Positions 1,722 to 26,299 of a DNA stretch of 64,000 nucleotides are shown one piece after another. The translations under genes were made by a program, and so were the position numbers. Numbering within the stretch: position 1 is the first letter of the stretch; every line of letters begins with the position of its first letter. The stretch is from assembly GCA_963737055.1 (NCBI GenBank), contig CAVTRE010000005.1, positions 124,037-188,036 on the forward strand, in the 5' to 3' direction. This DNA comes from an uncultured Solirubrobacterales bacterium. Its GTDB lineage: Bacteria; Actinomycetota; Thermoleophilia; Solirubrobacterales; Solirubrobacteraceae. A model generated the notes under the pieces. It had not been told where the DNA came from. It saw only the letters and a program-made list of their open reading frames with translations, and made no database searches.

Positions 1722-1754
1722 CGGCGTCGGGCGGCGCGGGCGGCGCGACGCGGG

Positions 1755-2012: not shown

Positions 2013-2119
2013 CGTTCTCTCCTCGACGACGACATCGTTTGTCTACCCCGATGCGCTGAATTTCCAACCGCAGCCCGGCCGGACTCGAGCCCGGCCGGGC
2101 CGCCGGCAATGGCCGATCG

Positions 2120-2890: not shown

Positions 2891-2921
2891 ATCAGTCGTT
2901 CCTTTCGTGGGCGGTGCGGGG

Positions 2922-3497: not shown

Positions 3498-3708
3498 TGC
3501 AACGTCTACTACCCAGTAGGCAGCAAACGATTCATGGGGTCAAATGCGCGAAAGAGGACGCCGCCGCCGCGTGGGGTCGGCGGCGGCGCCATGGCATCGC
3601 CGCAATGCGGCGAAGTTCGGTGCGAACGCGACAAGCACGAATAATCTCGGGCTTCCCGCGGTATGCCTGTGCTTTGAACTCGTTCAATCCCCACCCTCAC
3701 CGACGCAT

Positions 3709-5472
3709 GTGCGCCGAAAAACTTCCCGAGCGAGCAAAATTGCGTGGAGCGGTGAACAGCTGGAAGAGGAGGGGAGTGCCATCGTCAACCTGGATCCCAA
3801 GGCCATCATCAATGCCGCGCTCGACCCCAAGGGCCTGATCAGCGGCGCGGCGAAGCTCGCGGAGCGCGCCGGCGACGAGGCGTACTTCGCCGCGCTGTGT
3901 GTGCGGAGCGGTCTCGTCGGGCCGGAGCCGCCCCATCGCGTTGCGCAGCTGCTGCTTGGGTTTCAGCGGTACGGCCTGCTCGGCGGCGCGGTCGTAGCCG
4001 GCGCGGCGCGTCACGGCGACCGTGCCGTCATGATCGACGAGCGCGGCGAGCTCAGCTACAAGGAGCTCGACGAGCGCACCAACGCGCTCGCCAACGCCTG
4101 GCGCGAACACGGGCTCGAGGCCGGCGAGGGGGTCGCGATTCTCGCGCGCAACCACCGTGGGTTCCTCGAGGCGGTGTTCGCGGCCGCCAAGTGCGGCGCG
4201 CGGATCGTGCTGCTCAACACCTCGTTCGCGGGCCCGCAGATCCGCGAGGTCGCCGAGCGCGAGGGCACCGATCTGCTCGTGTACGACGACGAGTATTCGG
4301 ACACGCTCAAGGGCATCGATGACCCGCCGCGCGGGCGCTACCGGGCGTGGACAGACGAGCCCGGCGACGACACGCTCGACGCGCTGATCGAGGGCGGCGA
4401 TCGGAGCGCGCCGCCAAAGCCGAGGGAGTGGCCGCGGATCACGATCCTCACGAGCGGCACGACCGGCACGCCCAAGGGTGCGCCACGCTCGGAGCCGCGC
4501 TCGCTGGGGTTGATCGGCGGCCTGCTGAGCAAGGTCCCGTTCCACGCCCGGGAAACCACCGAGCTGTGCGTCCCGATGTTCCATGCGCTCGGATTCATGC
4601 AGGCGATCGTCGGCGTCGGCCTCGGGTCGACGCTCGTGGTGCGCAGGCGGTACGACCCCGAGGTCACGCTCGACAGCCTCGAGGAGCACGGCGCCACCGC
4701 CATGGTCATGGTCCCCGTCATGCTCTCGCGTCTCGTCGACCTCGGCGAGGAGGAGATCAAAAAGCGCGACACGTCCGCGCTGAAGATCATCTTCGTGAGC
4801 GGCTCAGCGCTCGGCGCGGACCTCGTCCAGCGCGCGACCGATCTGTTCGGGCCGGTGATCTACAACCTGTATGGATCGACCGAGATCGCCTACGCCACGA
4901 TCGCCACGCCCGAGGACCTCAAGGCGGAGCCGAGCAGCGTCGGCAAGGTGGTGCGCGGCTCGATCGTCAAGCTCCTCGACGAGGACGGAAAGGAGGTCGC
5001 CAAGGGCGATATCGGGCGGATCTTCGTCGGCAACATCTCGCAGTTCGAGGGCTACACGGGTGGCGGAAACAAGGACGTGGTCGAGGGCCTGATGGCCTCC
5101 GGCGACGTCGGCCACTTCGACCCCGAGGGTCGCCTGTATATCGATGGGCGCGACGACGAGATGATCGTCTCGGGCGGTGAGAACGTGTTCCCGGCCGAGA
5201 TCGAGGAGCTGCTCAGCGCGCACGAGTCGATCCAGGAGGCGGCCTCGATCGGCGTCGACGACCAGAAGTTCGGGCAGCGGCTCAAGGCGTTCGTCGTGCT
5301 GCAGAAGGGCGCCAAGCTCTCAGAGGATGAGATCAAGGAGTACGTCAAGGACAACCTCGCGAACTACAAGGTCCCGCGCGAGGTCGTGTTCCTCGACGAG
5401 CTGCCTCGGAACCCGACCGGGAAGGTGCTCAAGCGCGAGCTGGAGGCCGAGAAAGAAGAGGCAAAGACCTAG
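3709..5472 (+). CDS. acyl-CoA synthetase / AMP-dependent ligase (FadD-like)
   Basis: AMP-binding motif TSGTTGTPKG plus YGSTE and a GRxDD-like motif. The ORF opens at 3544 but the first ~55 codons look non-coding. GTG 3709 is my best guess for the start, and a strong GAGGAGG near 3770 leaves it uncertain. Confidence 0.85.
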   Translation: MRRKTSRASKIAWSGEQLEEEGSAIVNLDPKAIINAALDPKGLISGAAKLAERAGDEAYFAALCVRSGLVGPEPPHRVAQLLLGFQRYGLLGGAVVAGAARHGDRAVMIDERGELSYKELDERTNALANAWREHGLEAGEGVAILARNHRGFLEAVFAAAKCGARIVLLNTSFAGPQIREVAEREGTDLLVYDDEYSDTLKGIDDPPRGRYRAWTDEPGDDTLDALIEGGDRSAPPKPREWPRITILTSGTTGTPKGAPRSEPRSLGLIGGLLSKVPFHARETTELCVPMFHALGFMQAIVGVGLGSTLVVRRRYDPEVTLDSLEEHGATAMVMVPVMLSRLVDLGEEEIKKRDTSALKIIFVSGSALGADLVQRATDLFGPVIYNLYGSTEIAYATIATPEDLKAEPSSVGKVVRGSIVKLLDEDGKEVAKGDIGRIFVGNISQFEGYTGGGNKDVVEGLMASGDVGHFDPEGRLYIDGRDDEMIVSGGENVFPAEIEELLSAHESIQEAASIGVDDQKFGQRLKAFVVLQKGAKLSEDEIKEYVKDNLANYKVPREVVFLDELPRNPTGKVLKRELEAEKEEAKT

Positions 5473-6257
5473 GCGGTGTGGCGCTCGAGGAAGCCGAGCA
5501 TCCTTCGCCAGGCGTCCTGACAATCTTCGGCGTACTCCTCGAACCGCCGGTCGAAGAACGAGTGGGGCGCTCCGGGGTAGACATGGATCTCGTGGTCGAG
5601 CCCGGCGTCGGTCAGCTTGGCGTCGAACTCCTCGACCTGCTCGACCGGAATCGCCTGGTCCGCTCCGCCGAACAGGCCGAGCAGCGGGGCGCGGATCTCG
5701 GCGGCGCGCTCGAGTGGCCCGTCGACGCCGAAACGGTCGCCGGTGAGCACGCCGTAGAACCCGACGACGGCCGCGAGCTCGGGCATATCCGCGCCGGCCA
5801 GGAACGACTCGAACCCGCCCAGGCAGAACCCGACCGTCGCGATCGCCTGAGCGCCGGTGCGCTCGCGCAGCGCCGCCGCGGCCGCCGCGGCGTCCTGCTG
5901 GACTCCGGCGACCGTCAATTGCTGGACGTGGGGCATGTACTCGAACTCCTCGTCGCGCGGACCGAGGCCCGCGGTCCGCCCGAAGTAGTCGAGCGCAATC
6001 GCGTGGAAGCCGGCCTGGGCGAACCGCTCGGCGAGCTCGACGTAGAACTGGTACAGGCCGCGGACGTCCGGCAGGATCACGATCCCGCCCTTGCGCCCGG
6101 CGTCGGACGGCGCGAGCGCGCCGGAGAACCGCGTGTCGTCGGCCGAGACGAGCTCGAGCACCTCGGCCCCGGCTGCGCCGGCGATTGGGGCAAGCAGAAG
6201 ATCCTCGGGGGGCGCCGGCGGCCGGGCGTCGAAGTCGAAGCACATGCCGCCCGACAC
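5469..6257 (-). CDS. dienelactone hydrolase family protein
   Basis: 262 aa with an alpha/beta hydrolase layout typical of DLH (GIVILPDVRGL, GFCLGG nucleophile elbow). Confidence 0.85.
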   Translation of the reverse strand: MSGGMCFDFDARPPAPPEDLLLAPIAGAAGAEVLELVSADDTRFSGALAPSDAGRKGGIVILPDVRGLYQFYVELAERFAQAGFHAIALDYFGRTAGLGPRDEEFEYMPHVQQLTVAGVQQDAAAAAAALRERTGAQAIATVGFCLGGFESFLAGADMPELAAVVGFYGVLTGDRFGVDGPLERAAEIRAPLLGLFGGADQAIPVEQVEEFDAKLTDAGLDHEIHVYPGAPHSFFDRRFEEYAEDCQDAWRRMLGFLERHTA

Positions 6258-6266
6258 AATAGGGGT

Positions 6267-7376
6267 ATGACCGAAGCTATGACCACCGCCACCAATTCAC
6301 AGACCTTCCGGGCCCAGTTCCCAGTGCTCGAACGGCTGTCCTACCTCAACGCCGGCACCGAAGGGCCGATCCCAGCCGCCGCAGTCGAGGCGGTCCGCCG
6401 CCGGATCGAGGCCGAGGCCGAGACCGGCCGCTGCGGCCGCCCGTACTTCGAGGCGCTGATGGAGCTCGCCGCTCAGGCGCGCGCCGGGTACGCGACGGCG
6501 CTCGGCTGTGACCCCGTCGACGTCGCGCTGACGGGCTCGACCACCGACGGCATCAACACCGTCGTCGCCGGGCTCGATCTCCGCGCCGGCGACGAGATCG
6601 TGACCTCCGACCAGGAGCACCCTGGCATGCTCGCGCCGCTCGGACGAGCGCGCCGGCGTCATGGGGTCAAGATCCGCGTCGTCCCGTTCGCCGAGCTTCC
6701 CGGCGAGGTCACGAGCGCGACGCGGCTGATTGCGTGCTCGCATGTTTCCTGGGTGGGCGGCGAGGTCGCCGACGTGCCCGCGCTAGTCGCCACCGGGGTT
6801 CCGGTTCTGCTCGACGCCGCGCAGGCGCTCGGGGCGGTGCCGATCAACGTCCGCGAGCTCGGCTGCGACTTCTACGCAGGGTCGGGCCAGAAGTGGCTGT
6901 GCGGCCCGGAGGGCAGCGGGGCGCTGTTCGTGCGCGCCGACCGGCTGGACGACCTGCTCGTGCCGTGGCCGGGGTACGGCTCGGTAACGGATCCCGCCAA
7001 CGCGCTCGAGTTCGAGCAGGCCGAGGGCGTGAAGCGCCTCGATCACGGCTTCCCTTCCGGGATGAGGAGCGCCTGGGCGACCGCGTCTCTCGGGGTGTTC
7101 GAGGACGCGGGCTGGGACTGGGTGCACGAGCGCGCGGCTTCGCTGGCTGCGGGTCTCGCGGACCGGTTGGCCGAGAGCGGCCTGTCGGTATGGCCACGCG
7201 GTCGCTCGACGCTCGTCTCCTGGGCGGCGGAGGACGTCGATGCCGAGGTGGCGAGGCTTGCCGGCGAGGGCGTGATCGTCCGCAGCATCCCGGCGTTCGG
7301 ACTCGTGCGCGCGTCGGTGGGCGCGTGGACGTCGGAGGACGAGATCGAGCGGCTGGTGGCGCTGGCCGCTCTGTGA
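6267..7376 (+). CDS. class V aminotransferase (cysteine desulfurase / IPN epimerase-like)
   Basis: ATG at 6267 lies within the long ORF 5478-7376, and the upstream part of that ORF is antisense to the DLH gene. Motifs: YLNAGTEGP, GSTTDG, SGQKWLCGPEG. Confidence 0.85.
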   Translation: MTEAMTTATNSQTFRAQFPVLERLSYLNAGTEGPIPAAAVEAVRRRIEAEAETGRCGRPYFEALMELAAQARAGYATALGCDPVDVALTGSTTDGINTVVAGLDLRAGDEIVTSDQEHPGMLAPLGRARRRHGVKIRVVPFAELPGEVTSATRLIACSHVSWVGGEVADVPALVATGVPVLLDAAQALGAVPINVRELGCDFYAGSGQKWLCGPEGSGALFVRADRLDDLLVPWPGYGSVTDPANALEFEQAEGVKRLDHGFPSGMRSAWATASLGVFEDAGWDWVHERAASLAAGLADRLAESGLSVWPRGRSTLVSWAAEDVDAEVARLAGEGVIVRSIPAFGLVRASVGAWTSEDEIERLVALAAL

Positions 7377-11624: not shown

Positions 11625-12599
11625 ATGCGTGACTCCGAGCTCCTGCTCCGCCGGGCGAGGCGACCGCTGGTGATCGGCATGGGGGGCGGGGGCGACGTCG
11701 TCGGCGCGCTCGCCACCGCCGAGCTCATCCGGCTCTACGACGGCGGCGATCCAGTGCTCGGCGGGCTGACGTGGGAGCGCCGGCCGTTCGATCCCGTGCC
11801 GGGGCCCCGGACCGCGGCCGAGATCACCGGTGCGGAGGAGCTCGCGCCCGGGATCCTGCTCGCGGGCCCGGACACTCGGCTCCGTGATCGAGACGTGTTC
11901 TTCGCGGAGTCGCGAATGGCCGAGTTCCTCGGGCAACGCACGCTCCTGATCGACATCAACGACGGGCCGGCACCGGTGGCGGACGGGCTCGCGCACGCGA
12001 TGGCGGCCTTGAAGTGCGACCTGCTCGTGCTGGTCGACGTCGGCGGCGACGTGGTGGCGCGGGGCGACGAGCCGGGGCTTCGCAGCCCGCTCTGCGATGC
12101 CGTGATGCTGGCCGCCGGCGGCCGGCTGTCCCGGCGTGGCCAGCCGACCCTGCTCGGAATCTTCGGGATCGGGTGCGACGCCGAGCTCACGCCCAGCGAG
12201 GTGTTGGCGCGGGTGGCCGAAGTCGCGGCGGCCGGCGGGCTCTGCGGAGCGCGTGGGCTCACCGGGCCGGTCGCCGAGAGGATGGAGGCGGCGATCGAGC
12301 TCGTCAGCACCGAGGCCAGCGCGCAAGCGGTCCGCGCCTTCCGCGGCGCCTCCGGCCGGGCGACGATCCGCGGCGGCACGCGGACGCTCGAGCTGACCCC
12401 CGCCGCGTCGCTGACGTTCTACCTGGACGTCGACATCACGCTCAAGGTCGCGGGCCGGCTCGCCCAAGCGGTCGCCGACGCCGCCGGGCTCGAGGAGGCC
12501 AACGACTCGCTGCACAAGATCGGCGTGGGTACCGAGCTCGACTACGAGCGGGAGGCGGCCGCCGTTCAGCCCGCCGGCCGCTTGAACGCCGACGCGTAG
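11625..12599 (+). CDS. DUF1152 domain-containing protein
   Basis: VIGMGGGGDVVGAL...GGLTWERRPFDPVPGPR matches my recollection of DUF1152 (function unknown). Confidence 0.7.
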   Translation: MRDSELLLRRARRPLVIGMGGGGDVVGALATAELIRLYDGGDPVLGGLTWERRPFDPVPGPRTAAEITGAEELAPGILLAGPDTRLRDRDVFFAESRMAEFLGQRTLLIDINDGPAPVADGLAHAMAALKCDLLVLVDVGGDVVARGDEPGLRSPLCDAVMLAAGGRLSRRGQPTLLGIFGIGCDAELTPSEVLARVAEVAAAGGLCGARGLTGPVAERMEAAIELVSTEASAQAVRAFRGASGRATIRGGTRTLELTPAASLTFYLDVDITLKVAGRLAQAVADAAGLEEANDSLHKIGVGTELDYEREAAAVQPAGRLNADA

Positions 12600-12841
12600 T
12601 CGACGCCCTCCACCTCGATCGCCACGTTCACGGTCTTGCAGCGCGCGCATTTGATGCGCAGCTTGCGATTCATGTACTCCGGCGGCATTGCCGTTGCGAG
12701 CACGTTGCCGCACTCGACGCACACGTAGTCGTCGGGGCCGTTGCCTGCGAACACCGGGCGATCGGCGTTCTCCTGGACCGCGGTCCCGCCGTCGCGGGGC
12801 ACCTCCCCCTCGCGCACGCGTCGCATCGCGATCGTCGCCAT
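12566..12841 (-). CDS. small zinc-ribbon protein
   Basis: ATG at 12841. Two CxxC pairs (CVECG and CARCK) in 91 aa. Its 3' end overlaps the DUF1152 gene by 34 bp, convergently. Confidence 0.55.
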   Translation of the reverse strand: MATIAMRRVREGEVPRDGGTAVQENADRPVFAGNGPDDYVCVECGNVLATAMPPEYMNRKLRIKCARCKTVNVAIEVEGVDYASAFKRPAG

Positions 12842-12852
12842 TGCCGCTCCCC

Positions 12853-13281
12853 CTACAGCGCCGCCAGCTTCGAGCTGAAGTCCGTGATCAGTGCGTCGAG
12901 CACGTTCTGGACGACGCCCTCGCCCATCGACGCCGCCTTGCCGGTGATCTGAGCCGCGGTGTGGATCTTCCCCCCGCCGTCCGCGAGCTCGAAGGTGACG
13001 TCTGCGTTGGCGTGACCCTGCCCGCCCGCCTCCCGCGACTTGACCTGGAGTACGGCGCGGTGGACGTCCGGATCTTGCTCGATCACAGCCACGGTCCCTT
13101 TGAAGGTCATCGACATCGCGCCCATCTTGACCTTGATCTGCGCTTTGACGTTGTCGGGTGCCGTGGCCTCGGTCACGCTCCCGCCCTCGACGCACGAGAT
13201 CAGCTTGTCGAGGTCGAGGATCGTCTCCCAGTTGTGCTCGATCGGCTTGTCGTTCGAGTACGTGTGGTCGAGTTCAACCAT
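12853..13281 (-). CDS. coxG: SRPBCC protein, CO dehydrogenase subunit G (CoxG)-like
   Basis: 142 aa with the typical CoxG pattern (KVKMGAMSMTFKG, ITGKAASMG). Confidence 0.8.
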   Translation of the reverse strand: MVELDHTYSNDKPIEHNWETILDLDKLISCVEGGSVTEATAPDNVKAQIKVKMGAMSMTFKGTVAVIEQDPDVHRAVLQVKSREAGGQGHANADVTFELADGGGKIHTAAQITGKAASMGEGVVQNVLDALITDFSSKLAAL

Positions 13282-13311: not shown

Positions 13312-13824
13312 ATGGCACAACACTTTGGACCGGATAACGCACGCCTCACGATCAAGACGACGCGGCAGGGCGCGGCCGCGAAGGCCGGGCACGACCTGGT
13401 GATCGAGGTCGGCTCGTGGGAGGCGACGCTCGATCCCGAGGCGCAGCCCGCGCTCACGCTGACCGCCGACTCGCGGTCGCTGCGCGTCCTTCAGGGGACC
13501 GGCGGCGTCAAGCCTCTGGGCGAAAAGGACAAGTCGAACATCCAGCAGACGATCAACGACGAAGTGCTGAAGGGCTGCGCGATCGAGTTCCGCTCGAGCG
13601 GCGTCGAGTCCACGCCCGGCGTCTTGAAGGTGCGGGGCGAGCTCAGCTTGAACGGCAAGCAGGGCCCGGTCGAGTTCGACCTCGCGACCAGCGACGACGG
13701 CAGCCTGACCGGCCGCGCAAAGGTGACGCAGACCACATTCGGGATGAAGCCATACTCGGCGCTGTTCGGCGCGCTCAAGCTCGCCGACGACGTTCACGTC
13801 GAAATCGACGCCAAGGCTCACTGA
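13312..13824 (+). CDS. YceI family protein
   Basis: ATG at 13312 inside a long ORF. HDLVIEV...RGELSLNG...FGMKPYSA matches the YceI lipid/polyisoprenoid-binding fold family. Confidence 0.8.
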   Translation: MAQHFGPDNARLTIKTTRQGAAAKAGHDLVIEVGSWEATLDPEAQPALTLTADSRSLRVLQGTGGVKPLGEKDKSNIQQTINDEVLKGCAIEFRSSGVESTPGVLKVRGELSLNGKQGPVEFDLATSDDGSLTGRAKVTQTTFGMKPYSALFGALKLADDVHVEIDAKAH

Positions 13825-14276
13825 TCCGTGTAGACAGTCTGCGCGTCGAGCCCACCCTCGACGCCCGGTGGCAGCACGCCGGTGCCGTGGGCGTAGAGCG
13901 CGATGTCGGCAATCGTCTTCGCCTGCGCTGGGTCGTTGCTCGAGACGAACGCGCCGTTGTTCCACTGGATCGTTTCGGGCGAGCTGTCGAGCGCGGCGGC
14001 GGCGAGCAGCCGCGCCTTGTCGAGGATCTTCCCGGTGGCGCTCTCGATCGCCGCCGGCGTGCGCTGCGACGGCGCGGTGTTGTAGCCGTGGCCGGCGCCA
14101 AACCGGTCGGTGTCGGCGGGAACGACCTTGACGTCGAGCGCCGGGACGCCGAGCTCGCCCGCGACTAGTTGCGCGTAGCGAGCCTCCTCGCCGTCGGACT
14201 CGGTGGTCAGACTGAGCACCATCTTGCCCGTCGGGTGCACCCTGAGGAACACCGCCCGGTACGCCTCGTTGGCCAT
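13818..14276 (-). CDS. orphan CoxL-like molybdopterin-subunit fragment (152 aa; gene remnant or domesticated domain)
   Basis: It aligns by eye to CoxL residues around LRVHPSGK...GGLDAQ (RVHPTGK, ELGVP, GGLDAQ). The flanking ~480 N-terminal and ~170 C-terminal residues are missing. GQGHETT is degenerated to SDGEEAR. Confidence 0.6.
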   Translation of the reverse strand: MANEAYRAVFLRVHPTGKMVLSLTTESDGEEARYAQLVAGELGVPALDVKVVPADTDRFGAGHGYNTAPSQRTPAAIESATGKILDKARLLAAAALDSSPETIQWNNGAFVSSNDPAQAKTIADIALYAHGTGVLPPGVEGGLDAQTVYTDQ

Positions 14277-14467
14277 CACTCGTCCTCCTCTGGGGTTTGG
14301 TTCGAAGCCTGCTCGCGCGCCAGCCGCTGGCGCTCGAGGTGGGCGGTCAATGCGTTGTGATCCTCGAGGCTGCAGAAGCTGGGTTGCGGTCCGCCGAGGG
14401 GATGGGGCGGGAGAGCGGGCCGCTGGCAACCGGGATAGATACAGATTTTCGGCCCCGCGCCGCTCAT
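14276..14467 (-). CDS. Cys-rich small protein (63 aa), unknown function
   Basis: Its ATG overlaps the coxE stop (ATGA), and its own TGA shares one nucleotide with the next ATG. It carries a CIYPGC...FCSLEDH motif. Confidence 0.5.
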   Translation of the reverse strand: MSGAGPKICIYPGCQRPALPPHPLGGPQPSFCSLEDHNALTAHLERQRLAREQASNQTPEEDE

Positions 14468-15819
14468 GACCCCAAAGACCATCCGGGAGTCGTCTTACCG
14501 CGGCTTGGCCCATAGCCGCTGGGCATCGCCACCGAGCTGCCCGGCACCGGGGTGGCGCTCGGCCACGCCTCCTGGTCCTCCAGTTCTGGCGCGACCAGTG
14601 GTGCTTTGAGGGCGCCCGAGCGGGCGGCGCCGATCGCCTCGACCACCTCGTTGAGCGCCTCGAGGCTGTGGCCGCTGACGAGCGCATCACAGTGCGGGAG
14701 CGCAGCGACGAGCCCGCCGGCGCGGGCCTCGAAGCCGCCAGCGCTGACGCGGGGATTGACCCACACGATGCGATGCGCCAGCCGGCGCAGCCGCTCCATC
14801 TCGCGGCCGACGAGGGCCGGGTCACCGCGCTCCCACCCGTCCGAGAGAATCACCACGACCGCGCCGCGCGCCATCCCACGTCGGCCGTGGCGGTCGTTGA
14901 ACGCCTTCAGCGCATCCCCGATTCGCGTGCCGCTCGACCAATCCGGAGCGGCCGCCGCCGCGCGCTGGATCGCTCGCTCGGGGTTGCGGGAGAAGAGTGC
15001 GCGCGTCAGGCGCGTCAGTCGGGTCGCAAACACGAAGGCCTCCGCGCGATTCGCACTCGGGCCGCCGGCCGCGGCGGTCAGGAACTGGAGGTAGGCGCGC
15101 GCGTAGGGCTCCATCGAGCCCGAGATGTCGCACAGCATCACGATCCGGCGGCGCACGACGCGCCGGCGCCGGCGGGACAACCGGATCGGATCGCCCGCGG
15201 TGCGCAGGCTTCCCCGGAGCGTCCGGCGCATGTCGATCCGCTCGCCGCGTCGATCTCGCTTGGCCCGCCGCGTCCGCCGCGGCGGCGTCGCGATGCGTAG
15301 TCGCGTCATCAGCCGGTACAGCCCCGCGAGCTCGTCGGGCTCGAGCGCGTCGAAGCGCTTGGAGCGAAGCACCTCCTCGTCGCTGGCGAGCACGGGAATG
15401 AGCTCGTCGTGCGTGACCTCACCCGGGCTCGGGGTGGCTGCATCCGAGCGGGTCGCGCCGCCCGACGGTGGCGAGTCGAGGCCTTGCGCGCTCCGCCGCC
15501 GCTCGTCAGCCGGCGCCGGCACCGTTTCGGCGGCGGCGGGAACCAGGCCCGACGGCTCCTCCACCGGTTCCGCGCCGAACACGCGGAAGAACACGTGGTC
15601 GAACGCGCGCACATGCGCGCGGTCGGACACGAATGCGGCCCGCGCGGTGAAGTACAGCCGCCGGCGCGAGATCGGTTCGACAATCGCCAGCGCCTGCGCG
15701 AACCAGGCGGCGCGCTCCGCCGTCACCGGCACGCCGGCGTCGTGAAGCCGTCGGCTGAAGGCGCTCGCGACCGCCGGGAGGTCGAGCCCGAGCGAACGAA
15801 CACGGAATGCCTCGGTCAT
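14464..15819 (-). CDS. coxE: VWA domain-containing CoxE-like protein
   Basis: The C-terminal VWA domain has a MIDAS-like motif (MLCDISGSM). It sits directly after the MoxR ATPase gene with an ATGA overlap. Confidence 0.85.
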   Translation of the reverse strand: MTEAFRVRSLGLDLPAVASAFSRRLHDAGVPVTAERAAWFAQALAIVEPISRRRLYFTARAAFVSDRAHVRAFDHVFFRVFGAEPVEEPSGLVPAAAETVPAPADERRRSAQGLDSPPSGGATRSDAATPSPGEVTHDELIPVLASDEEVLRSKRFDALEPDELAGLYRLMTRLRIATPPRRTRRAKRDRRGERIDMRRTLRGSLRTAGDPIRLSRRRRRVVRRRIVMLCDISGSMEPYARAYLQFLTAAAGGPSANRAEAFVFATRLTRLTRALFSRNPERAIQRAAAAAPDWSSGTRIGDALKAFNDRHGRRGMARGAVVVILSDGWERGDPALVGREMERLRRLAHRIVWVNPRVSAGGFEARAGGLVAALPHCDALVSGHSLEALNEVVEAIGAARSGALKAPLVAPELEDQEAWPSATPVPGSSVAMPSGYGPSRGKTTPGWSLGS

Positions 15820-16730
15820 CGGGGGATCACCAGCTCGTCCAGCCCAGCCGCCCGCACGACCTCCTGGTCCTCTGAGTACTTGAGCACGGACCCGAGCGTG
15901 CGGTCAATCGCTTCCGCGTCGAGCTCGGAGAGGCCGAGCTCCGTGAGCGCCGCCACCCAGTCGATCGCCTCGGCGACACCGGGCGGCTTCTGGACGTCGC
16001 TGTCGCGCATCCGCGAAATCGCGTCGGCCACCTGCACCGCCAGTCGCTGCGAGGCGGCCGGGATCCGCCGACGGATGATCTCGACCTCGCGTTGGGGCGT
16101 GGGGTAGTCGATCCACTGGTACAGGCAGCGGCGCTTGACCGCATCGTGCAGGTCGCGGGTGCGGTTCGAGGTCAGCACGATGATGGGAGGATGGGTGGCG
16201 CGCACAGTGCCGACTTCCGGGATCGTCACCGCGGCCTCGGCGAGCAGCTCGAGCAGGAACGCCTCGAAGTCGTCGTCGGCGCGGTCGATTTCGTCGATCA
16301 GCAGCACCGCCGGCCGCGGCCCCGGATGCTCGAGCGCGCGCAGCAGCGGGCGGCGGATCAGATACTCGCGTCCGAACAGATCCTGCTCGCGCAGCTCCGA
16401 ACCCTGCGCTTCGGCGAGCCGGATGCTGAGCAGCTGGCGCGGATAGTTCCACTCGTACAGCGCCTCGGCGGCATCGATGCCGTCGTAGCACTGGAGCCGG
16501 ATGAGGGGCGTATCGAGCACTGCCGCCAGCGATTTGCTCGCCTCGGTCTTGCCGACGCCGGCCTCGCCCTCGAGCAGCAGCGGCTGGGGCAAGCGCAGGC
16601 TCAGGAACATCGAGGTCGCGAGGCTCTCGTCGACGAGGTAGTCGACCGCGGCCAGCCGCTGGGCCAGCGTCTCCACGTCCGGCACCAGGTGGCGGATCTC
16701 GTCTGCCGCCTCGCCGGTGATGCGCATCAT
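15816..16730 (-). CDS. coxD: MoxR-type AAA+ ATPase CoxD
   Basis: Walker A GEAGVGKT and Walker B LLIDEIDRA. ATG at 16730 overlaps the upstream stop. The longer ORF extension is rejected. Confidence 0.9.
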   Translation of the reverse strand: MMRITGEAADEIRHLVPDVETLAQRLAAVDYLVDESLATSMFLSLRLPQPLLLEGEAGVGKTEASKSLAAVLDTPLIRLQCYDGIDAAEALYEWNYPRQLLSIRLAEAQGSELREQDLFGREYLIRRPLLRALEHPGPRPAVLLIDEIDRADDDFEAFLLELLAEAAVTIPEVGTVRATHPPIIVLTSNRTRDLHDAVKRRCLYQWIDYPTPQREVEIIRRRIPAASQRLAVQVADAISRMRDSDVQKPPGVAEAIDWVAALTELGLSELDAEAIDRTLGSVLKYSEDQEVVRAAGLDELVIPR

Positions 16731-17682
16731 GCCGTCGCGTGCTGGCGCTCGAAGGCCTGCTTGCAGCCCTCGCCGCAGAAGTAGTGGGTATCGCCGCCGG
16801 CGTCCGTGGCCGAAAGCGCGTCCGGGGTGACGACCACGGTCATGCCGCAGATCGGGTCGACCGACGTTGTCGGCGGCGCGGCCGCCCACGACCGCGGCGT
16901 CGTGCTCGACTGTCGCCGCACCTGGATGATCGATGCGAGGATCGACAGGGCGATCTCGGCCGGTGTGCGGGCGCCGATGTCCAGCCCGGCGGGTGTGTCG
17001 ATCCGTTCGATCAGCTCCTCGGTGACCCCGTCGGCCCGAAGCTCGTCGAGCACCGCGGCCCCGCGCTTGCGACTCGCGACCAGGCCCACATAGCGGACTT
17101 CGGCCTCGAGCGCGGCGCGGAGGATGGCACGCTCGTCCCGACCGTGCGCCGCGACCACGAGCGCGAGGTCGTCGGCGCTCGGCACCGGCGAGCCCGAGTC
17201 GTCGCCGCGTCCGAGGACTGCTTCGAACCCGAGATCCGGGGCGAGGCGCAACAGCGCCGCCGCGATCGGTGTGTCCCCGGCGACGATCATCCGCGGCGGC
17301 GGCAGAAATGGCTCGAGGAAGACCTCGATCGCGCCGCCCGACAGGCACGGGTTCTGGACGGTGACCGAGCCCTCGTCGTGTGCGACCTCGTGCCAGGGGT
17401 CAAGGTTCGCTGCGTTCTTGACCGCCGTGACTCCCGGGGCGTCGGGGAGTATCCGCAGGAGGAGGGGCTCGCCGCGCTCGATCGCCTTGAGCGAGTAGAG
17501 CCGCACGCTGTTTTGTGCGCACACGCCGCCGACGAATCCCTCGATCTGTCCGTCCTCGTGGACAAGCGCCACGTTCCCGGGCTTGGAGCTGGTTGGGTGC
17601 TCGACCCGCACCACGGTCGCGGTCACGAACGTGGCGCCCCGCTCGGTGAGCTCGCGTGCGCGAGCACTGAGCGGACCGGTGA

Positions 17683-17686
<4 letters not shown>
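16727..17686 (-). CDS. XdhC/CoxF/CoxI-family maturation factor fused to a C-terminal YHS/TRASH domain
   Basis: The GTG overlaps the coxL stop (GTGA). XdhC N-terminal and Rossmann-like parts are present, and the terminal 45 aa read DPICGMTV...YFCGEGCKQAF (YHS motif). Confidence 0.8.
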
Positions 17687-20058
<2,372 letters not shown>

Positions 20059-20064
20059 GCTCTC

Positions 20065-20553
20065 TCACGCCTCCTGTTTCGTTGCGGAGCGCTCGGCCTC
20101 GTGCTCGGCCGCCCAGCGCACGGCGCTGACGATGTTCTTGTAGCCGGTACAACGGCAGATCGCCCCCGAGATCGCGGTCCGGATCTCCGCCTCGGTCGGG
20201 TTCGCGTTTTCATTCAGCAGGGCACGCGTGGTCATCAGCATCCCCGGCGTGCAGAAGCCGCAGTGCAGGCCGTGTTTCTCGTGGAAGCCGAGCTGCACCG
20301 GATCGAGGCCCGCCTCGGTTTCCAGCGACTCCACCGTGCGGATCTCGTGTCCGGCGGTCATCGCCGCGAGTGTCGTGCACGACTTGATTGGCTTGCCGTC
20401 CATCAGGACCACGCACGCCCCGCAATTAGACGTGTCGCAGCCCCAGTGCGTGCCGGTCAGCCCTGGCGTGTCGCGGATGAAATGAACGAGCAGCGTGCGC
20501 GGCTCGACGTCGCGGAAGACCTGTTGCCCGTTGATGTTGATCGTGACTTCCAT
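20065..20553 (-). CDS. coxS: CO dehydrogenase small subunit, [2Fe-2S]-binding
   Basis: CDTSNCGAC and CGFC...CRCTGY cluster motifs, 162 aa. Confidence 0.92.
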   Translation of the reverse strand: MEVTININGQQVFRDVEPRTLLVHFIRDTPGLTGTHWGCDTSNCGACVVLMDGKPIKSCTTLAAMTAGHEIRTVESLETEAGLDPVQLGFHEKHGLHCGFCTPGMLMTTRALLNENANPTEAEIRTAISGAICRCTGYKNIVSAVRWAAEHEAERSATKQEA

Positions 20554-20556
20554 GTT

Positions 20557-21435
20557 CTAGTTGACCTCCTGCTGCAGGGCACGGGCCGTGGCGCGTCGCA
20601 GCGCGCGCACGGTGAGGACATTCGCGAGATGGCGCTTGTAGTCGACCGGCCCCCGTCCATCCGCCACCGGAGCGCAGTCTTCGGACGCGATCTCGCCCGC
20701 CTGCGCGAACAGCTCCTCCGAGGGTGGCTTGCCCTTCAGCGCCTCCTCGGCACGGGTCGCGATGATCGTGGTCGGCCCGAGCGCACCGAGGGCGATGCCG
20801 GCGTCGGCGATCGTGCCGCCTTCGATCCACACTGCCGCTGACACGGCCGCGATCGCGAAGTCGCCGGCGCGTCGCTCGACCTTCTCGTGCGCGCTCCCGG
20901 CGCCGGCCCTGATCGGGATCCGAACCTCGGTCACCATCTCGTCCGCCCCGACGGCGGTCGTGAACGGACCGATGTAGAACCCATCCATGCCCGTGACCCG
21001 CTCTCCGGACGGTCCTCGGATCACCACCTGCGCCTTCAGCGCGGCGCACACCGCCGACAGGTCCTCGGCCGCGTCAGCCTGGCAGAGCGATCCGCCGATC
21101 GTTCCCCGGTTGCGAACGACCGGGTCGGCGATGACCTCCTCGGCCTCGCGGAACACCGGCGCGCGGCGTGCGAGGAGGCCGGACTCGAGCAGCTCGCAAT
21201 GTCGCGTGAGCGCCCCGATCCGGATCTCGGTGATGCGCTCGTCGATGTAGGACAACTCGTCGAGGTCGTTGATGTCGATCAGGAACTCCGGGTTCGCGAG
21301 CCGCAGCTTCATCATCGGCAGCAGGCTATGGCCGCCGGCGATCAGCCGTGCCTCGGGACCGATTCTCTGGAGCGTCGCGATCGCGCCTTCGACGCTGGTC
21401 GCGCGCTCGTACTCAAACGGAGCGGGGGTCTGCAC
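20557..21435 (-). CDS. coxM: CO dehydrogenase medium subunit, FAD-binding
   Basis: FAD-binding PCMH-type domain (AGGHSLLP, GTIGGS), 292 aa, GTG start preceded by AAGGAG. Confidence 0.9.
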   Translation of the reverse strand: MQTPAPFEYERATSVEGAIATLQRIGPEARLIAGGHSLLPMMKLRLANPEFLIDINDLDELSYIDERITEIRIGALTRHCELLESGLLARRAPVFREAEEVIADPVVRNRGTIGGSLCQADAAEDLSAVCAALKAQVVIRGPSGERVTGMDGFYIGPFTTAVGADEMVTEVRIPIRAGAGSAHEKVERRAGDFAIAAVSAAVWIEGGTIADAGIALGALGPTTIIATRAEEALKGKPPSEELFAQAGEIASEDCAPVADGRGPVDYKRHLANVLTVRALRRATARALQQEVN

Positions 21436-21444
21436 CGGATCTCC

Positions 21445-22140
21445 TTATCGGTCGTCGTTCTTGAGTCGGCGCAGGAACGCCAGGCCGGACTTGACCACGC
21501 CGCCCTCGGTTTCCTCGGGCTGCGACGTCGGGCCCGCACCCACGGTCACCGGCATCCGCTTTCGCACCCCGGGCGAGTCGCTCGGCTCGTACTGGACCGG
21601 TGAGTCGGTGCCGATGATCGGTGAGCGCGGCATCGAATTCGGGCGCGTCTGCCTGATCTCGGGATACAGGGAGCGAGCGGCGAGGCTGCCGTACGTTGGG
21701 TTGCGCAGCGCCGGCCCGTTCGGGCTCGCGGCCGCGATCGGGGCCTCCCGGCCGAGCCGGGCCAGCGTGAGCGTCCCTTTCGTGTACACCTCGCCGATCC
21801 GCGGGGCCGTCGTCTCCTTGCTCTCGGGGAAGTTCCGGAAGCCCTCACCGGCCGCGCCCGTATAGAGCCCCTCGACCAGCCCGACCGCGTCCTCCATGCC
21901 CGCCTTCTTCACGAGCAGGCCCTCGAGCAGGTCGACGCCCGCGTCGAGGTTCGTATTGATCGAGGTCACGACGTCGTCCACTGGAGCGCTTTTCTCGATG
22001 ATCCCGACCACTCCGGTGATCGCCTTGTCGAGGTTGTCTCTGATCCTGATAAGCGCCACGATCGTCATCATCAGGTAGTAGACGACCGCGAGGATGATCA
22101 GCGCCACCGCGACGATCATGACTATTCCAGCTGCTGGCAT
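21445..22140 (-). CDS. single-pass membrane protein with a long disordered tail (array member 5)
   Basis: N-terminal TM helix plus a helical segment like the four upstream genes. GGAGG lies upstream of the ATG. The gene ends 9 nt before coxM. Confidence 0.7.
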   Translation of the reverse strand: MPAAGIVMIVAVALIILAVVYYLMMTIVALIRIRDNLDKAITGVVGIIEKSAPVDDVVTSINTNLDAGVDLLEGLLVKKAGMEDAVGLVEGLYTGAAGEGFRNFPESKETTAPRIGEVYTKGTLTLARLGREAPIAAASPNGPALRNPTYGSLAARSLYPEIRQTRPNSMPRSPIIGTDSPVQYEPSDSPGVRKRMPVTVGAGPTSQPEETEGGVVKSGLAFLRRLKNDDR

Positions 22141-22149
22141 TCCTGCCTC

Positions 22150-22410
22150 CTATCGGGCGTCGTCGAGGATCACGTCGAGCGAGCCGCCGTAATCTGCGGC
22201 CACCTCGATGGTCTTCTGTACCTGATCCTGCGTGGTGAGCAGGAGCGCGGTCGCGTCGAGGTCCTTAGACCCGGCGGTAGCGGCCGTCGCGATCTGCTCG
22301 ACGCTCGGCACGATGCCGTTCGCCGCGTTCAGGACGCCGCGCAGCAGGTACACGACGACCGGGAGCACGACGAGGATCAGGATCGCGTCGCCGATCCATT
22401 CGAGGGTCAT
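22150..22410 (-). CDS. small single-pass membrane protein (array member 4, 86 aa)
   Basis: The ATG overlaps the upstream stop (ATGA). TM helix ILILVVLPVVVYLL is followed by an Ala/Thr-rich helix. Confidence 0.65.
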   Translation of the reverse strand: MTLEWIGDAILILVVLPVVVYLLRGVLNAANGIVPSVEQIATAATAGSKDLDATALLLTTQDQVQKTIEVAADYGGSLDVILDDAR

Positions 22411-22676
22411 TTCGGCCTCCTGTCGGCGACGATCTTGGCCTTGCGCGCGATTCCCGGGAAAGCGCCCAGGATCACGTCGAACTGGCCGTTGATCGCCTTG
22501 ACCGCGGGCTCGAGCGGCTGCAGGTGCTCGGCCTCCACCATGTTCAGAGCGCCGGCGAGCGTCGCGAGGTCTGCTGAAGTCGCCTCGAGGTCCTGACGGA
22601 CCTTGATCAGCGCCGCGGCGACCGCCGCGATGATGATCACCGCGAGCACAACGCTGAGGATGATGAGCGTCGTCAT
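22407..22676 (-). CDS. small single-pass membrane protein (array member 3, 89 aa)
   Basis: ATGA overlap at both ends. An N-terminal TM helix is followed by a helical segment. Confidence 0.65.
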   Translation of the reverse strand: MTTLIILSVVLAVIIIAAVAAALIKVRQDLEATSADLATLAGALNMVEAEHLQPLEPAVKAINGQFDVILGAFPGIARKAKIVADRRPK

Positions 22677-22975
22677 CGGTCACCTGCCCCGTTGCCGAAT
22701 CCGTCGGTGAGGGCGTTCATGTACCCGTCCTGGATCACGGCCTCCTCCACGATCAGTCCCAGCACGGGCGCCGTCGCCTCGAGCTGGGGGATGTTCTGAG
22801 TGTTGCCGGCGACCGCGCCGGCCACCTCGAGCAGGGCTCCGGCGGATTTCCGGATGTCGCCGACGGTCCTGACGAGCACGAGCAGCAAGCCGGCAACCGC
22901 GAGCGCCACGACCAGGCCGATCACCAGCGAGATTGTCCAGACGTCGTGATTGGTTAGGGCAGCGGGCGCAATCAT
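22673..22975 (-). CDS. small single-pass membrane protein (array member 2, 100 aa)
   Basis: ATG at 22975 overlaps the upstream stop (ATGA). TM helix ISLVIGLVVALAVAGLLLVLV. Confidence 0.65.
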   Translation of the reverse strand: MIAPAALTNHDVWTISLVIGLVVALAVAGLLLVLVRTVGDIRKSAGALLEVAGAVAGNTQNIPQLEATAPVLGLIVEEAVIQDGYMNALTDGFGNGAGDR

Positions 22976-23232
22976 TTGCCCACCGCCACTTTGCGAAGCG
23001 CCCGCGCCGAGTGCAGGATCCTGACCCCGGAGTCGTTGATGCGGCTGATCCCCGCGAGTCCTTCGGTCTGGGCGCGGACCTTCTCCACGCCCTCGACGGC
23101 GGTCCGCGCCTGCGCCGCGATCCTCCGGGCCAGCATCACGATCGTGATCACGATCGCCGCGGCTACCACGGCGACGATGACGCCGAGCACTAGCCCGATG
23201 ACCCAACCGGTGGAAGCACCGATCAAGATCAA
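22972..23232 (-). CDS. small single-pass membrane protein (array member 1, 86 aa)
   Basis: TTG start 6 nt after GGAGG. A TM helix is followed by a DUF948-like helical segment. Confidence 0.65.
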   Translation of the reverse strand: MILIGASTGWVIGLVLGVIVAVVAAAIVITIVMLARRIAAQARTAVEGVEKVRAQTEGLAGISRINDSGVRILHSARALRKVAVGK

Positions 23233-23310
23233 GTCACACCTCCTGTGTCGTTCTCCCTCGTCTTCTCGATAGAGGACGCCGGACCCGCAACCGATCTTCC
23301 TCCGAGTAGA

Positions 23311-23339
23311 ACTGTGCCGCGCAATCGTTTGCGCGTCAA
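23311..23339 (-). promoter_or_regulatory. candidate sigma-70-type promoter with an operator-like palindrome for the membrane-array/cox operon
   Basis: On the minus strand: TTGACG, a 17-nt spacer, then CACAGT. The spacer contains CGCGCAA-acga-TTGCGCG. This is the only AT-relaxed gap upstream of gene 22972-23232. Confidence 0.35.
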
Positions 23340-23355
23340 CCTTAAGTAACGGGGA

Positions 23356-23977: not shown

Positions 23978-26299
23978 TTATGCGGCGCGGCGCTGCTGCG
24001 CGACCAGCGGAATCGGCCAGCGCGCCAGTTCGAGCTCGTTGGCCGGTTTGGGCTTGGAGATCACGTAGCCCTGGACGAGGTCGCAGCGCAGCCCGGTGAG
24101 CAGGCTGAGGCAGTGGTTGTCCTCGACCCCCTCGGCGACGACCCGCAGCCCGAGCGCGTGGGCGAGCTCGACGGTCGCGCGCACGAGCGCGAGGTCTCGG
24201 CCTTCCTTGGACTCGGCCAGCCGGATGATGAAGCTGCGGTCGAGCTTGAGCTCCTTGACCGCGAGGCTGCCGAGGTACGCCAGCGACGTGAAGCCGGCGC
24301 CAAAATCGTCCACGGACACAACCAATCCCAGGTCATGGAGCTTCTGGATGGCGTGCTGCGAGCGCTCGAAGTCAGCGATCGCGGTCGTCTCGGTCATCTC
24401 GAGGACGAGCATCTCCGGTCCGAGCCCATAGCCTGCGAGCAAACCGGCAACGAGATCGGGGAAGTCCGGGTTCAGGAGATCCGAGGCGGAGATGTTGACC
24501 GACACGGTCAGCTCTTTGCCGGCGGCTCGCCAGGTGGCGCATTGGAACAGGGCCTCGTCGAGCACGACCGTGGTCAGCGCGCCCATCAGGCCGGCGTCCT
24601 CGGCCAGTGCGATGAACTCGAGCGGCGGGACGGAGCCCAAACGCGGGTGGATCCATCTGACCAGCGCCTCGACCGAGTTGATCTCGCCGGTGGAGAGGTC
24701 GACCTGCGGCTGATAGTGAAGCTCGAGCTGGCGGCCATCGATCGCCTCCTGAAGCTCCTCGACCAGCTGCACCCGGTTGGCTGCGCCATCGAGGTCCTCC
24801 TGGTAGATGGCGAACGGCTTGCCCTCGAGCTTGGCGCGGTACATCGCGAGGTCGGCGCAGCGGATAAGGTCGTCCGCGTCGGTGGCGTCGCCGGGCATGA
24901 CCGCGATGCCGATGCTGGCCCCGATCTGCACGCGCACGGCGTCGAGTGCGAATGGCTCCTCGATCCGGGCGGTCAGACGCGCGCCGACCGTCGCCGCGTA
25001 GTCCGCGCCGGCGTCGAGCAGCGCGACGACGAATTCGTCGCCCCCGAGCCTGACCACCAGGTCGGAGCTCCGGAGCGATTCCTCGAGCCGGGTGCCGAGC
25101 TGGCGGAGGAGCTCGTCGCCCGTCGGATGGCCGAACGTGTCGTTGACCTCCTTGAACTTGTCGAGGTCAACGAACATGAACGCTAGGCTGCGTTCCGGTG
25201 CGTCCGGGTCGCGCTGCTCGGCGGTGAACTCCTCCATGAGCTGGAACAGAGCCCGGCGGTTGCCGAGTCCGGTCAGCTGGTCGGTGATCGACTCGCGCCG
25301 GCGCTGCTCGGTGATCGAGCGCAGGCCGATGAGCGACAGGGCCGACCGACCGCCGGCGACGAGCAGCGTCGCCACGGCCAGCCCGAGCGACAAGCGGCCG
25401 ACGTGGTGCAGCGAGCCGACGAACAGGATCACGAGGGCCGCGGTCGCCGCCACGGCGGGCAGTGTGAACCCGTGTGGCTCTTCGGAGAGCAGAGGCTTGT
25501 CGTTAGGCGACCTCACCCAGACCGCGATCGACACGAGCAGGATCGCCACGGGCCAGGCGATGTCGTTGAGCACGGTGCCGACCAGCGAGGTCGTGCCGAG
25601 CACGTTGAACACGTCGCCCACCGTGTTGAGGGCATAGCCGGCGGCGAGCAGGAGCCAGGGGATCTTCCGCTTGCCGGGCACGATCGCGGCGCCGCCGACG
25701 ACGAGCCCGAGCAGGAGGACGTCGCCGACCGGGTACACGAGGTTCACCGCGACGCCCGCGCTGCTCCCGCCGGCGTGGTGAAGCACCTTGTCGAACGCAA
25801 ACGTGGCGCACACTGCCGCTGCGCCGAAGCCGGCGACCGCGCCGTCGAGCCAGCCGGCGAGGCTGAACCGCCGGACGTTGCCGCGCAGGAGCAGCATCAG
25901 GGCCGCGTATGTGATGGGATAGAACGCGATGTAGAAGATGTCGGCGAGCGAAGGCGACGGGGGCGTCGCCCCGCCGAGCGACTGGATCGTGAGGGTGAGA
26001 TCACCCACAGCCCAGCACACCAGGCCGATCCCGAGCAGGATCGGGACGGCGCGGCCGCGCCTGAGGTAGGCGGCCTTGAGAACGCACAGCGCGCCGGCGA
26101 CGATCTCGAACGCGACCACGCCCCAGCCGTCCAGCCAGGTGGCGTCGTAGCCGAGCGAGTCAACCACGACGTAGCCGACCACGAGCGCAGCGAGCACCAC
26201 GTACACGGCGCGGATGACCGGATGCGCCCGGTCGACCTCGCGGCGATGCGGGTGGAAGGCAGCACGAACCGCGGCGCCTGTGCTGTCGCCGGTGCTCAC
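23978..26299 (-). CDS. multi-pass membrane sensor with GGDEF and EAL domains
   Basis: About 9-10 N-terminal TM helices. RSSD I-site plus GGDEF, which I checked at 25031-25045. EAL motifs EALVRW, DDFGAG, EGVE and QGY. Confidence 0.9.
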   Translation of the reverse strand: MSTGDSTGAAVRAAFHPHRREVDRAHPVIRAVYVVLAALVVGYVVVDSLGYDATWLDGWGVVAFEIVAGALCVLKAAYLRRGRAVPILLGIGLVCWAVGDLTLTIQSLGGATPPSPSLADIFYIAFYPITYAALMLLLRGNVRRFSLAGWLDGAVAGFGAAAVCATFAFDKVLHHAGGSSAGVAVNLVYPVGDVLLLGLVVGGAAIVPGKRKIPWLLLAAGYALNTVGDVFNVLGTTSLVGTVLNDIAWPVAILLVSIAVWVRSPNDKPLLSEEPHGFTLPAVAATAALVILFVGSLHHVGRLSLGLAVATLLVAGGRSALSLIGLRSITEQRRRESITDQLTGLGNRRALFQLMEEFTAEQRDPDAPERSLAFMFVDLDKFKEVNDTFGHPTGDELLRQLGTRLEESLRSSDLVVRLGGDEFVVALLDAGADYAATVGARLTARIEEPFALDAVRVQIGASIGIAVMPGDATDADDLIRCADLAMYRAKLEGKPFAIYQEDLDGAANRVQLVEELQEAIDGRQLELHYQPQVDLSTGEINSVEALVRWIHPRLGSVPPLEFIALAEDAGLMGALTTVVLDEALFQCATWRAAGKELTVSVNISASDLLNPDFPDLVAGLLAGYGLGPEMLVLEMTETTAIADFERSQHAIQKLHDLGLVVSVDDFGAGFTSLAYLGSLAVKELKLDRSFIIRLAESKEGRDLALVRATVELAHALGLRVVAEGVEDNHCLSLLTGLRCDLVQGYVISKPKPANELELARWPIPLVAQQRRAA

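Follow-up and report, generated by a model that had tools for sequence, protein, structure and literature searches.

Here we describe an array of five genes, g1–g5, joined to the front of a form-I carbon monoxide dehydrogenase (CODH) operon, coxMSL, in a 64,000-nucleotide (nt) stretch of DNA from an uncultured Solirubrobacterales bacterium (family Solirubrobacteraceae; contig CAVTRE010000005.1). The five encoded proteins, each with a single hydrophobic segment, may together form a hetero-oligomeric membrane stalk that faces the cytoplasm and docks CODH, CoxG or both at the membrane, a reading to which we give a probability of about 0.45. This reading is strengthened by two features of the system: its CoxG has no membrane helix, and a conserved tail of g5 tracks linkage to cox genes. 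Judging from deeper branches, the array appears to be the cox-dedicated core of an older membrane module specific to Thermoleophilia. Coordinates refer to the whole 64,000-nt stretch, called the window, and L-numbers (L001, L002 and so on) denote related loci from other genomes.

A five-gene array in front of coxMSL

The array and the structural genes of the enzyme are as follows.

22972–23232, minus strand: g1, TTG start, 86 amino acids
22673–22975, minus strand: g2, ATG start, 100 amino acids
22407–22676, minus strand: g3, ATG start, 89 amino acids
22150–22410, minus strand: g4, ATG start, 86 amino acids
21445–22140, minus strand: g5, ATG start, 231 amino acids
23239–23244, minus strand: AGGAGG, Shine–Dalgarno sequence of g1, 6 nt before the g1 start
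20557–21435, minus strand: coxM, flavin adenine dinucleotide (FAD) subunit, GTG start
20065–20553, minus strand: coxS, [2Fe-2S] subunit, identified by profile search
17683–20058, minus strand: coxL, form-I Mo-CODH large subunit, with AYRCSFR

The original prediction, made from the sequence alone, had called five minus-strand genes of these lengths, and every detail of their coordinates that we checked was correct. Its account of the junctions is equally exact: on reading the sequence, stop and start codons overlap as ATGA between g1 and g2 (22972–22975), g2 and g3 (22673–22676) and g3 and g4 (22407–22410), and gaps of 9 nt lie on either side of g5, the second between its stop codon and the GTG of coxM (21435). 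Overlapping stop and start codons that are kept in relatives mark a translationally coupled operon, and we propose that these overlaps would yield near-equimolar amounts of g1–g4. The further claim of stoichiometric co-translation with coxMSL goes too far, as the ATGA coupling covers g1–g4 only; g5 and coxM each have a Shine–Dalgarno sequence of their own, that of g5 being an AGGAGG across the g4 stop codon. Ahead of the g1 start, ACAGGAGGTGTGAC is seen again in most related loci.

The downstream genes were assigned to form-I [MoCu] CODH on two features of CoxL: the active-site loop AYXCSFR and a TIGR02416 score that exceeds the equivalog cut-off. The loop, as AYRCSFR, is found at window position 18954, and the score is 1219.6 bits, the cut-off being 991.15, so the form-I operon called in the original prediction is upheld on both counts.

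Linkage to coxMSL across Thermoleophilia

Several lines of evidence tie the array to CODH. First, g5 is carried by 522 GTDB species genomes, the best 80 of which are all Thermoleophilia metagenome-assembled genomes (MAGs), and in a first set of 82 loci from distinct Thermoleophilia genomes, likewise all MAGs, the order g1-g2-g3-g4-g5-coxM-coxS-coxL is found without exception (82/82). A synteny survey of relatives was among the checks that the original prediction had proposed, and in these loci the array precedes coxMSL throughout. The 4-nt overlaps at the three g1–g4 junctions are kept in 75/79, 69/77 and 75/78 loci, the g4–g5 gap spans 8–16 nt, and the script-called distance between g5 and coxM runs from −23 to +25 nt, the two genes overlapping in 36 loci.

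The gene upstream of g1 varies. It is GGDEF with mocA in 16 loci, coxS2-coxL2-mocA-x-coxM2 in at least 13, coxM2-coxS2 in 12 and none of these in 26; in L086, coxG lies immediately upstream. The stable linkage is therefore to coxMSL and not to the upstream gene.

In about one-third of related genomes (L006, L012–L021, L033 and L035, at approximately 1400–6860), a second form-I-like cox set lies directly upstream of g1. This set, coxS2-coxL2-mocA-x-coxM2, is 60–70% identical and has its own AYRCSFR, and the array there sits between two sets of CODH genes.

In the window itself, a mocA-like cytidylyltransferase gene lies upstream of g1 on the same strand, beyond a 123-nt gap, and 7 nt further upstream, again on the same strand, is a gene for a large polytopic GGDEF–EAL membrane protein (23978–26299, minus strand). 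This neighbour of the window's sublineage, the PadR or LysR neighbours of other branches and a faint HBM/HAMP-like helical resemblance of g3 (E = 0.07) are what could suggest a sensor, in which the helical bundle would pass a membrane or redox signal, such as the state of the quinone pool, to GGDEF–EAL or to PadR or LysR. We consider such signalling very unlikely. Homologues of GGDEF–EAL are found upstream of the array in only 35 of the 80 loci with g1 called, and with mocA form the immediate context in just the 16 counted above; none of g1–g5 has an output domain; and expression in one operon with the structural genes is more in keeping with a structural partner than with a regulator.

Architecture and predicted topology of the five proteins

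Second, the proteins themselves have the form expected of membrane-bound helical partners. Each has one N-terminal hydrophobic segment, with a maximum Kyte–Doolittle 19-residue mean of 2.7–3.2, which bears out the N-terminal hydrophobic helix originally predicted for each. In g1, a transmembrane (TM) helix at around residues 10–34 is followed by a nearly invariant C-terminal basic motif, INDSGVRILHSARALRKVAVGK; g2 has the invariant motif QDGYMNALTDG; and g3 and g4 each combine a TM helix with a helical segment, bearing the conserved motif VESEHLRPLEPAV.AIN in g3 and the invariant S.DLDA and YGGSL in g4.

In an AlphaFold2 model of g5 (43 sequences), the TM segment and a stalk form one helix over residues 3–80, with a predicted local distance difference test score (pLDDT) of 82–96; short helices follow at 82–92 and 115–128, and pLDDT falls below 50 past residue 130. 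The g2 model, built from database homologues only (32 sequences), has a mean pLDDT of 77.4, with the TM helix extending as one helix over residues 9–60 and a second helix at 69–93. In these models, the TM helix of g5 and g2 is predicted to be prolonged into the aqueous phase as a stalk-like helix, an arrangement typical of proteins that bundle with partners. Hydropathy and the two models also give a DUF948-type architecture, that is, an N-terminal TM helix and a helical, coiled-coil-like segment, as a resemblance only.

Across the five families, Lys and Arg residues cluster directly behind the TM segment, and the short flank on its N-terminal side is either neutral or acidic. By the positive-inside rule, this charge bias suggests an N-out/C-in topology, which would place the helical domains in the cytoplasm, on the same side as CODH. 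Cysteine is absent from the five window proteins and occurs in 0, 1, 1, 4 and 2 of approximately 80 orthologues for g1 to g5, respectively. A redox subunit was considered and rejected, the TM segments having no conserved Cys or His.

A CoxG without a membrane helix

Third, the CoxG of this clade differs from those known to reach the membrane.

12853–13281, minus strand: coxG, 142 amino acids, 100% identical to an L002 gene flagged PF06240

In CoxG of Mycobacterium smegmatis, a flexible linker joins an SRPBCC domain to a C-terminal membrane helix, and the protein extracts menaquinone and hands it to CODH (PMC12202499); CoxG of Oligotropha carboxidovorans (205 amino acids) recruits CODH to the membrane (PMC4240915). 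The window CoxG ends with the SRPBCC domain and has neither C-terminal linker nor TM helix. The same holds in all 23 relatives in which CoxG was seen (21 full-length matches): the proteins are 142–146 amino acids long with nothing past the SRPBCC domain, and their maximum Kyte–Doolittle 19-residue mean, at most 1.42, indicates no hydrophobic segment. By its gene content, this Thermoleophilia clade is thus without the known CoxG tether and carries the five-protein array instead. Right after coxG, a protein of 85–91 amino acids with two CxxC pairs (zinc-ribbon-like) is encoded at 12566–12826 (minus strand) and is kept in L001 and L002.

A conserved tail of g5 accompanies cox genes

Fourth, one part of g5 follows the genomic partner of the array.

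21571–21843, minus strand: conserved tail of g5, residues ~100–190, FRNFP..VYTKG..LARLGREAPIAAA..GPALRN..Y..LYP..PRSPIIGTDSPVQYEP

The tail is among the best conserved parts of g5, yet is predicted to be unstructured in the monomer (pLDDT <50). Its motif, VYT[KR]G..LARLGR.AP[IL][AG]A..GPA[LV]R..Y..LYP..[RK]SP[VI]IG..P.QY, is found as a strict pattern in 81 of 82 loci, with a diverged form in L086, and the tail is present in every g5 that adjoins coxMSL or lies a few kilobases (kb) off, including B copies (the cox-proximal ones where two arrays coexist) and single arrays near cox genes. Pro/Ala-rich low-complexity sequence replaces it in the A copies of L093, L094 and L095, as well as in L098, L103, L104, L105 and L137, whose contigs show no cox gene; those of L098 and L104 are shorter than 7 kb, and cox genes may lie past their ends. 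In L093 and L095, which have two arrays, only the cox-proximal copy has the tail, and this copy is the one closest to the window genes. Being conserved, disordered alone and co-varying with the genomic partner, the g5 tail looks like a docking peptide, and it is the strongest in silico hint of a CODH-specific role.

Taken together, these features would fit the following mechanism. A single messenger RNA (mRNA) would start in the 123-nt gap upstream of g1 and run through g1–g5 into coxMSL, and from it five single-pass, N-out/C-in proteins would be made in near-equal amounts. On the cytoplasmic face, they would build a helical stalk of several different subunits, in which the ~90-residue tail of g5 and the C-terminal motifs that are invariant in g1, g2 and g4 would bind the soluble form-I CODH, the quinone shuttle CoxG or both. 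The FAD site of CoxM would thereby be kept by the membrane and electrons from CO would reach menaquinone, the array acting in this clade as a stand-in for the membrane helix of mycobacterial CoxG. Hetero-oligomerization, CODH or CoxG binding and the role in electron transfer are what we infer from gene order, conservation and models.

An older, larger module in deeper branches

In branches in which g5 is 40–45% identical, g1–g5 stand inside a longer unit of ~9 genes: a divergent PadR gene, three proteins of 240–280 amino acids, g1–g5 and a protein of 150–195 amino acids that has a TM segment and is weakly similar to PsbP. The three large proteins precede g1 (for example, L083 4454–6890 and L093 2332–4711) and are probably extracytoplasmic. 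In each, a positively charged N terminus and a single TM segment are combined with a coiled coil of long heptad repeats, of the type (T/S)A(G/K)xINx, and with a pair of C-terminal cysteines. Searches of Pfam and NCBIfam with these large proteins gave weak coiled-coil-type matches only, DUF948 among them at 15 bits. Beyond the divergent PadR gene lie an acyl-CoA dehydrogenase gene (L083, L088, L092 and L093) or carotenoid genes (L084, L089 and L105).

The module is a separate transcription unit; moaA/moaC and a LysR gene on the opposite strand separate it from form-I coxMSL, which is usually 4–7 kb away. In these distant branches, array copies of the cox type are found 0.2–7 kb from form-I coxMSL, and several lineages have two arrays. 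In L093, copy A stands with the large proteins and copy B (g2–g5 only) abuts LysR-coxMSL; the window g2, g4 and g5 are 55, 52 and 45% identical to copy B, versus 42, 45 and 39% to copy A. In L137, two copies of the array stand in tandem, and the 8.4 kb of this locus include no cox gene. The original prediction had described an array fused onto the cox operon. That wording now needs amending: the array did not come from nothing but is the retained core of the ~9-gene PadR-linked module, a separate unit in other lineages.

Several points weigh against a dedicated CODH dock. The ancestral module, with its three apparently extracytoplasmic coiled-coil proteins, its PsbP-like exported protein and its divergent PadR gene, resembles a general complex of the envelope or membrane more than a subunit of CODH. 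In L105 (10645–16458), the module is followed not by cox genes, of which the next 8 kb downstream show none, but by moaA (opposite strand) and by hypD and hypE, which serve hydrogenase maturation; this region may be a trace-gas gene island. Given the deep-branch module and the copies without cox genes, the array cannot strictly be called a CODH invention. The topology is based on charge bias alone, which is weak for g4, and the contacts within the array and with CODH or CoxG are ones that we infer from the sequences. The array cannot itself accept the electrons, as it has no conserved His or Cys that would point to a redox cofactor. Finally, a domain-only CoxG exists in many bacteria that have no such array, and an anchorless CoxG alone demands no substitute.

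These points lead to an alternative in which g1–g5 form a general membrane or envelope module that merely stands beside the cox genes: the cytoplasmic-face part of a Thermoleophilia-specific, PadR-controlled complex with no function in CODH, perhaps serving stress, membrane organization or a DUF948-like role, whose position would reflect shared regulation or genomic history. The separate deep-branch unit with its TM coiled-coil, PsbP-like and PadR genes, held apart from coxMSL by moaA/moaC and LysR, is in its favour, as are the duplications in L093 and L137, the hypDE neighbourhood of L105 and the weak DUF948-like similarity. It is countered by the 82 of 82 in-operon fusions to coxM, with junctions of at most 25 nt despite differing upstream contexts, by the restriction of the long conserved g5 tail to cox-linked copies and by the coxG gene directly before g1 in L086. 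We judge a general module to be an unlikely, still serious alternative to the docking stalk.

Genes downstream of coxL

Downstream of coxL follow xdhC/coxF, a coxD-type AAA+ gene and a coxE-type VWA gene. This continuation, in which the XdhC/CoxF-type protein has a copper-type YHS domain, is one reason to consider a membrane scaffold for CODH maturation, which would hold apo-CODH together with CoxD, CoxE and CoxF during Mo–S–Cu insertion. For O. carboxidovorans, descriptions exist of CoxD as a membrane protein (PMC3471820) and of CoxE as membrane-bound and using electrons from respiration (PMC4240915); genes for the molybdenum cofactor (mocA and moaA/C) are also frequent neighbours. The array, however, adjoins the structural genes, upstream of coxM, and not coxDEF; gene order after coxL varies whereas the g5–coxM junction is fixed; and the sequences of g1–g5, with no conserved Cys and few His, give no sign of metal binding. 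A maturation scaffold is, in our estimate, quite improbable.

Several further features of this region stand on their own. The XdhC/CoxF-type gene (16727–17686, minus strand) encodes the YHS-type, copper-associated domain (ICGM...HYFCGEGC) at the C terminus, and the domain is flagged likewise in L001, L085, L086, L087, L088, L092 and L093. A stand-alone protein of 152 amino acids (13818–14276, minus strand) corresponds to the middle of CoxL (TIGR02416 positions 478–620, E = 2e-28); this free CoxL fragment is encoded after coxE and is kept at that place in L001, L002, L086, L088 and L092. A small Cys protein of 63–70 amino acids (C.YPGC.RPA ... C..EDHNA), with no family match, is encoded after coxE in the window (14276–14482, minus strand) and between g5B and LysR in L093 (11894–12106), L088 and L092.

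Selection, family searches and paralogy

All five genes are under purifying selection on a par with coxM: pairwise Nei–Gojobori ratios of nonsynonymous to synonymous substitution (dN/dS) against four relatives are 0.14–0.46 for g1–g5 (0.14–0.26 for g1) and 0.12–0.28 for coxM. Median identity to the window proteins is 67–80% across approximately 80 species-level genomes, with TM and soluble parts both conserved; across the region, L002 proteins are 97–99% identical to those of the window. An exact-sequence look-up of the window g5 returned no record.

The original prediction had placed the proteins in no characterized family, DUF948-like at best, and profile-based searches (Pfam, NCBIfam and the PDB) agree, none yielding a significant match. 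In Pfam and NCBIfam, g1–g5 gave sub-threshold matches only, dominated by the TM helix; DUF948 (PF06103) matched g5 at 12.3 bits (E = 0.2) against a gathering cut-off of 37.2 and did not match g1–g4 at E ≤ 10. No Pfam match to SRPBCC/CoxG (PF06240) was found in g1–g5, nor any MHYT or other Pfam domain at E ≤ 10. A PDB-wide sequence-profile search gave an unrelated best hit for g5 (E = 0.86) and no match for g2, and Foldseek comparison of both AlphaFold2 models with the PDB found no analogue. A pseudopilin or TadE-like identity for g3 (NCBIfam E = 0.017) was rejected, as there is no leader peptide, the charge bias is opposite and the C-terminal parts are helical. With 295 representatives when 1.84 billion proteins are clustered at 50%, g5 forms a narrow family; in a 5.8-billion set, it has ~7,000 clusters at 90% identity and the g2 family ~2,500. 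Where g5 homologues are named, the name is ‘hypothetical protein’ or, in a few Joint Genome Institute (JGI) records, ‘YoxC’.

A description of the five as diverged paralogues finds moderate support: hhalign probabilities are 84% for g1–g2, 68% for g2–g4 and 65% for g3–g5, and below 10% for the remaining pairs. Each family has its own separate invariant C-terminal motif, and each protein has a one-to-one orthologue even where g5 is only ~40% identical, so any duplication is old. Paralogy of g1–g5 seems plausible.

Upstream region and transcription

The sole sizeable intergenic gap is that of 123 nt upstream of g1 (23233–23355), and it contains two candidate elements.

23311–23339, minus strand: promoter-like element, TTGACG (23339–23334), 17-nt spacer, CACAGT (23316–23311)
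23334–23319, minus strand: palindrome GCGCAAACGATTGCGC inside TTGACG-N17-CACAGT, candidate operator

The promoter-like element is kept in the four closest genomes (the window, L001, L002 and L022), and the palindrome may be the operator for some regulator; its L001 counterpart is the perfect GCGCAATCGATTGCGC. The original prediction had located the only promoter-like gap here. The uniqueness of the gap holds; a consensus sigma-70 scan called no promoter, the TTGACG-N17-CACAGT element included. No same-strand terminator was found in a scan of the array, the sole terminator-like site within it lying on the opposite strand (21932–21947). With the 9-nt gap to coxM here and the −23 to +25 nt in approximately 80 species, this sustains the co-transcription originally proposed: g1–g5 are very probably co-transcribed with coxMSL. 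A riboswitch or structured leader was dropped because shuffled sequence folds at least as well as the 88-nt leader before g1 (z = 0.65) and Rfam, searched over the whole window, found one distant transfer RNA (tRNA) and nothing else.

Comparison with known systems

Thermoleophilia (Solirubrobacterales) rank with the most abundant Actinomycetota of soils and carry form-I CODH, which removes atmospheric CO. To our knowledge, only in mycobacteria has it been established how CODH is wired to the respiratory chain, namely through membrane-tethered CoxG and menaquinone. If the array is a membrane link, it would define a second way in which trace-gas oxidation is coupled to respiration, extend the cox system by five protein families and offer a target for work on native CODH; if it is unrelated to CODH, it would still be a conserved, lineage-specific membrane complex. 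It appears to be new to the literature that we searched: we found no account of these genes and no curated family that covers them, and literature on cox clusters with small membrane proteins or on Solirubrobacter CODH does not describe g1–g5.

Of the known cox membrane proteins, those of O. carboxidovorans had been offered as an analogy to the array. In that organism, coxB, coxC, coxH and coxK are reported to encode membrane proteins (Santiago et al., 1999). Proteins of the CoxC/CoxH type are polytopic membrane sensors with an MHYT domain. Unlike these, g1–g5 each have a single hydrophobic segment and no MHYT domain. The coxB/coxC analogy is positional only and refers to the place of these genes upstream of coxMSL in the cluster coxBCMSLDEFGHIK (PMC4240915); we detected no homology.

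DUF948/YoxC (PF06103) shares with the array an N-terminal TM helix and a ~90-residue Ala/Val/Leu-rich helical segment, but g5 falls far under its gathering threshold and g1–g4 do not match it. We know of no function for DUF948, which hence explains nothing here.

The membrane helix of M. smegmatis CoxG is a single helix, encoded in the cox cluster, that on the cytoplasmic side keeps the CODH/quinone shuttle at the membrane (PMC12202499). The anchor there lies within CoxG, whereas the putative anchor here consists of five proteins without CoxG similarity.

The nearest functional analogue would be the stalk of HucM, a small helical protein of the mycobacterial [NiFe] hydrogenase Huc whose coiled-coil stalk joins the soluble enzyme to the membrane and gives access to menaquinone (PMC10017518). 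Both cases concern small helical accessory proteins encoded with a trace-gas-oxidizing enzyme, the stalk role here being proposed from genes and models. HucM is a homotetramer that is only peripherally associated with the membrane; by contrast, g1–g5 are five different integral single-pass proteins. PDB profile and Foldseek searches with g2 and g5 gave no significant match, the Huc entries being assumed, unchecked, to be present in the searched set. A bolder version of the docking stalk, which we regard as a doubtful prospect, would make a hetero-pentameric TM coiled-coil stalk an integral set of form-I CODH subunits in Thermoleophilia and an independently evolved counterpart of the HucM stalk, with the g5 tail clamping CoxMSL and the bundle offering a protected menaquinone route or a short hop for anchorless CoxG to the CoxM flavin. 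On these comparisons, we propose that the array belongs with the membrane-anchoring accessory subunits of peripheral respiratory dehydrogenases, drawn here from new protein families.

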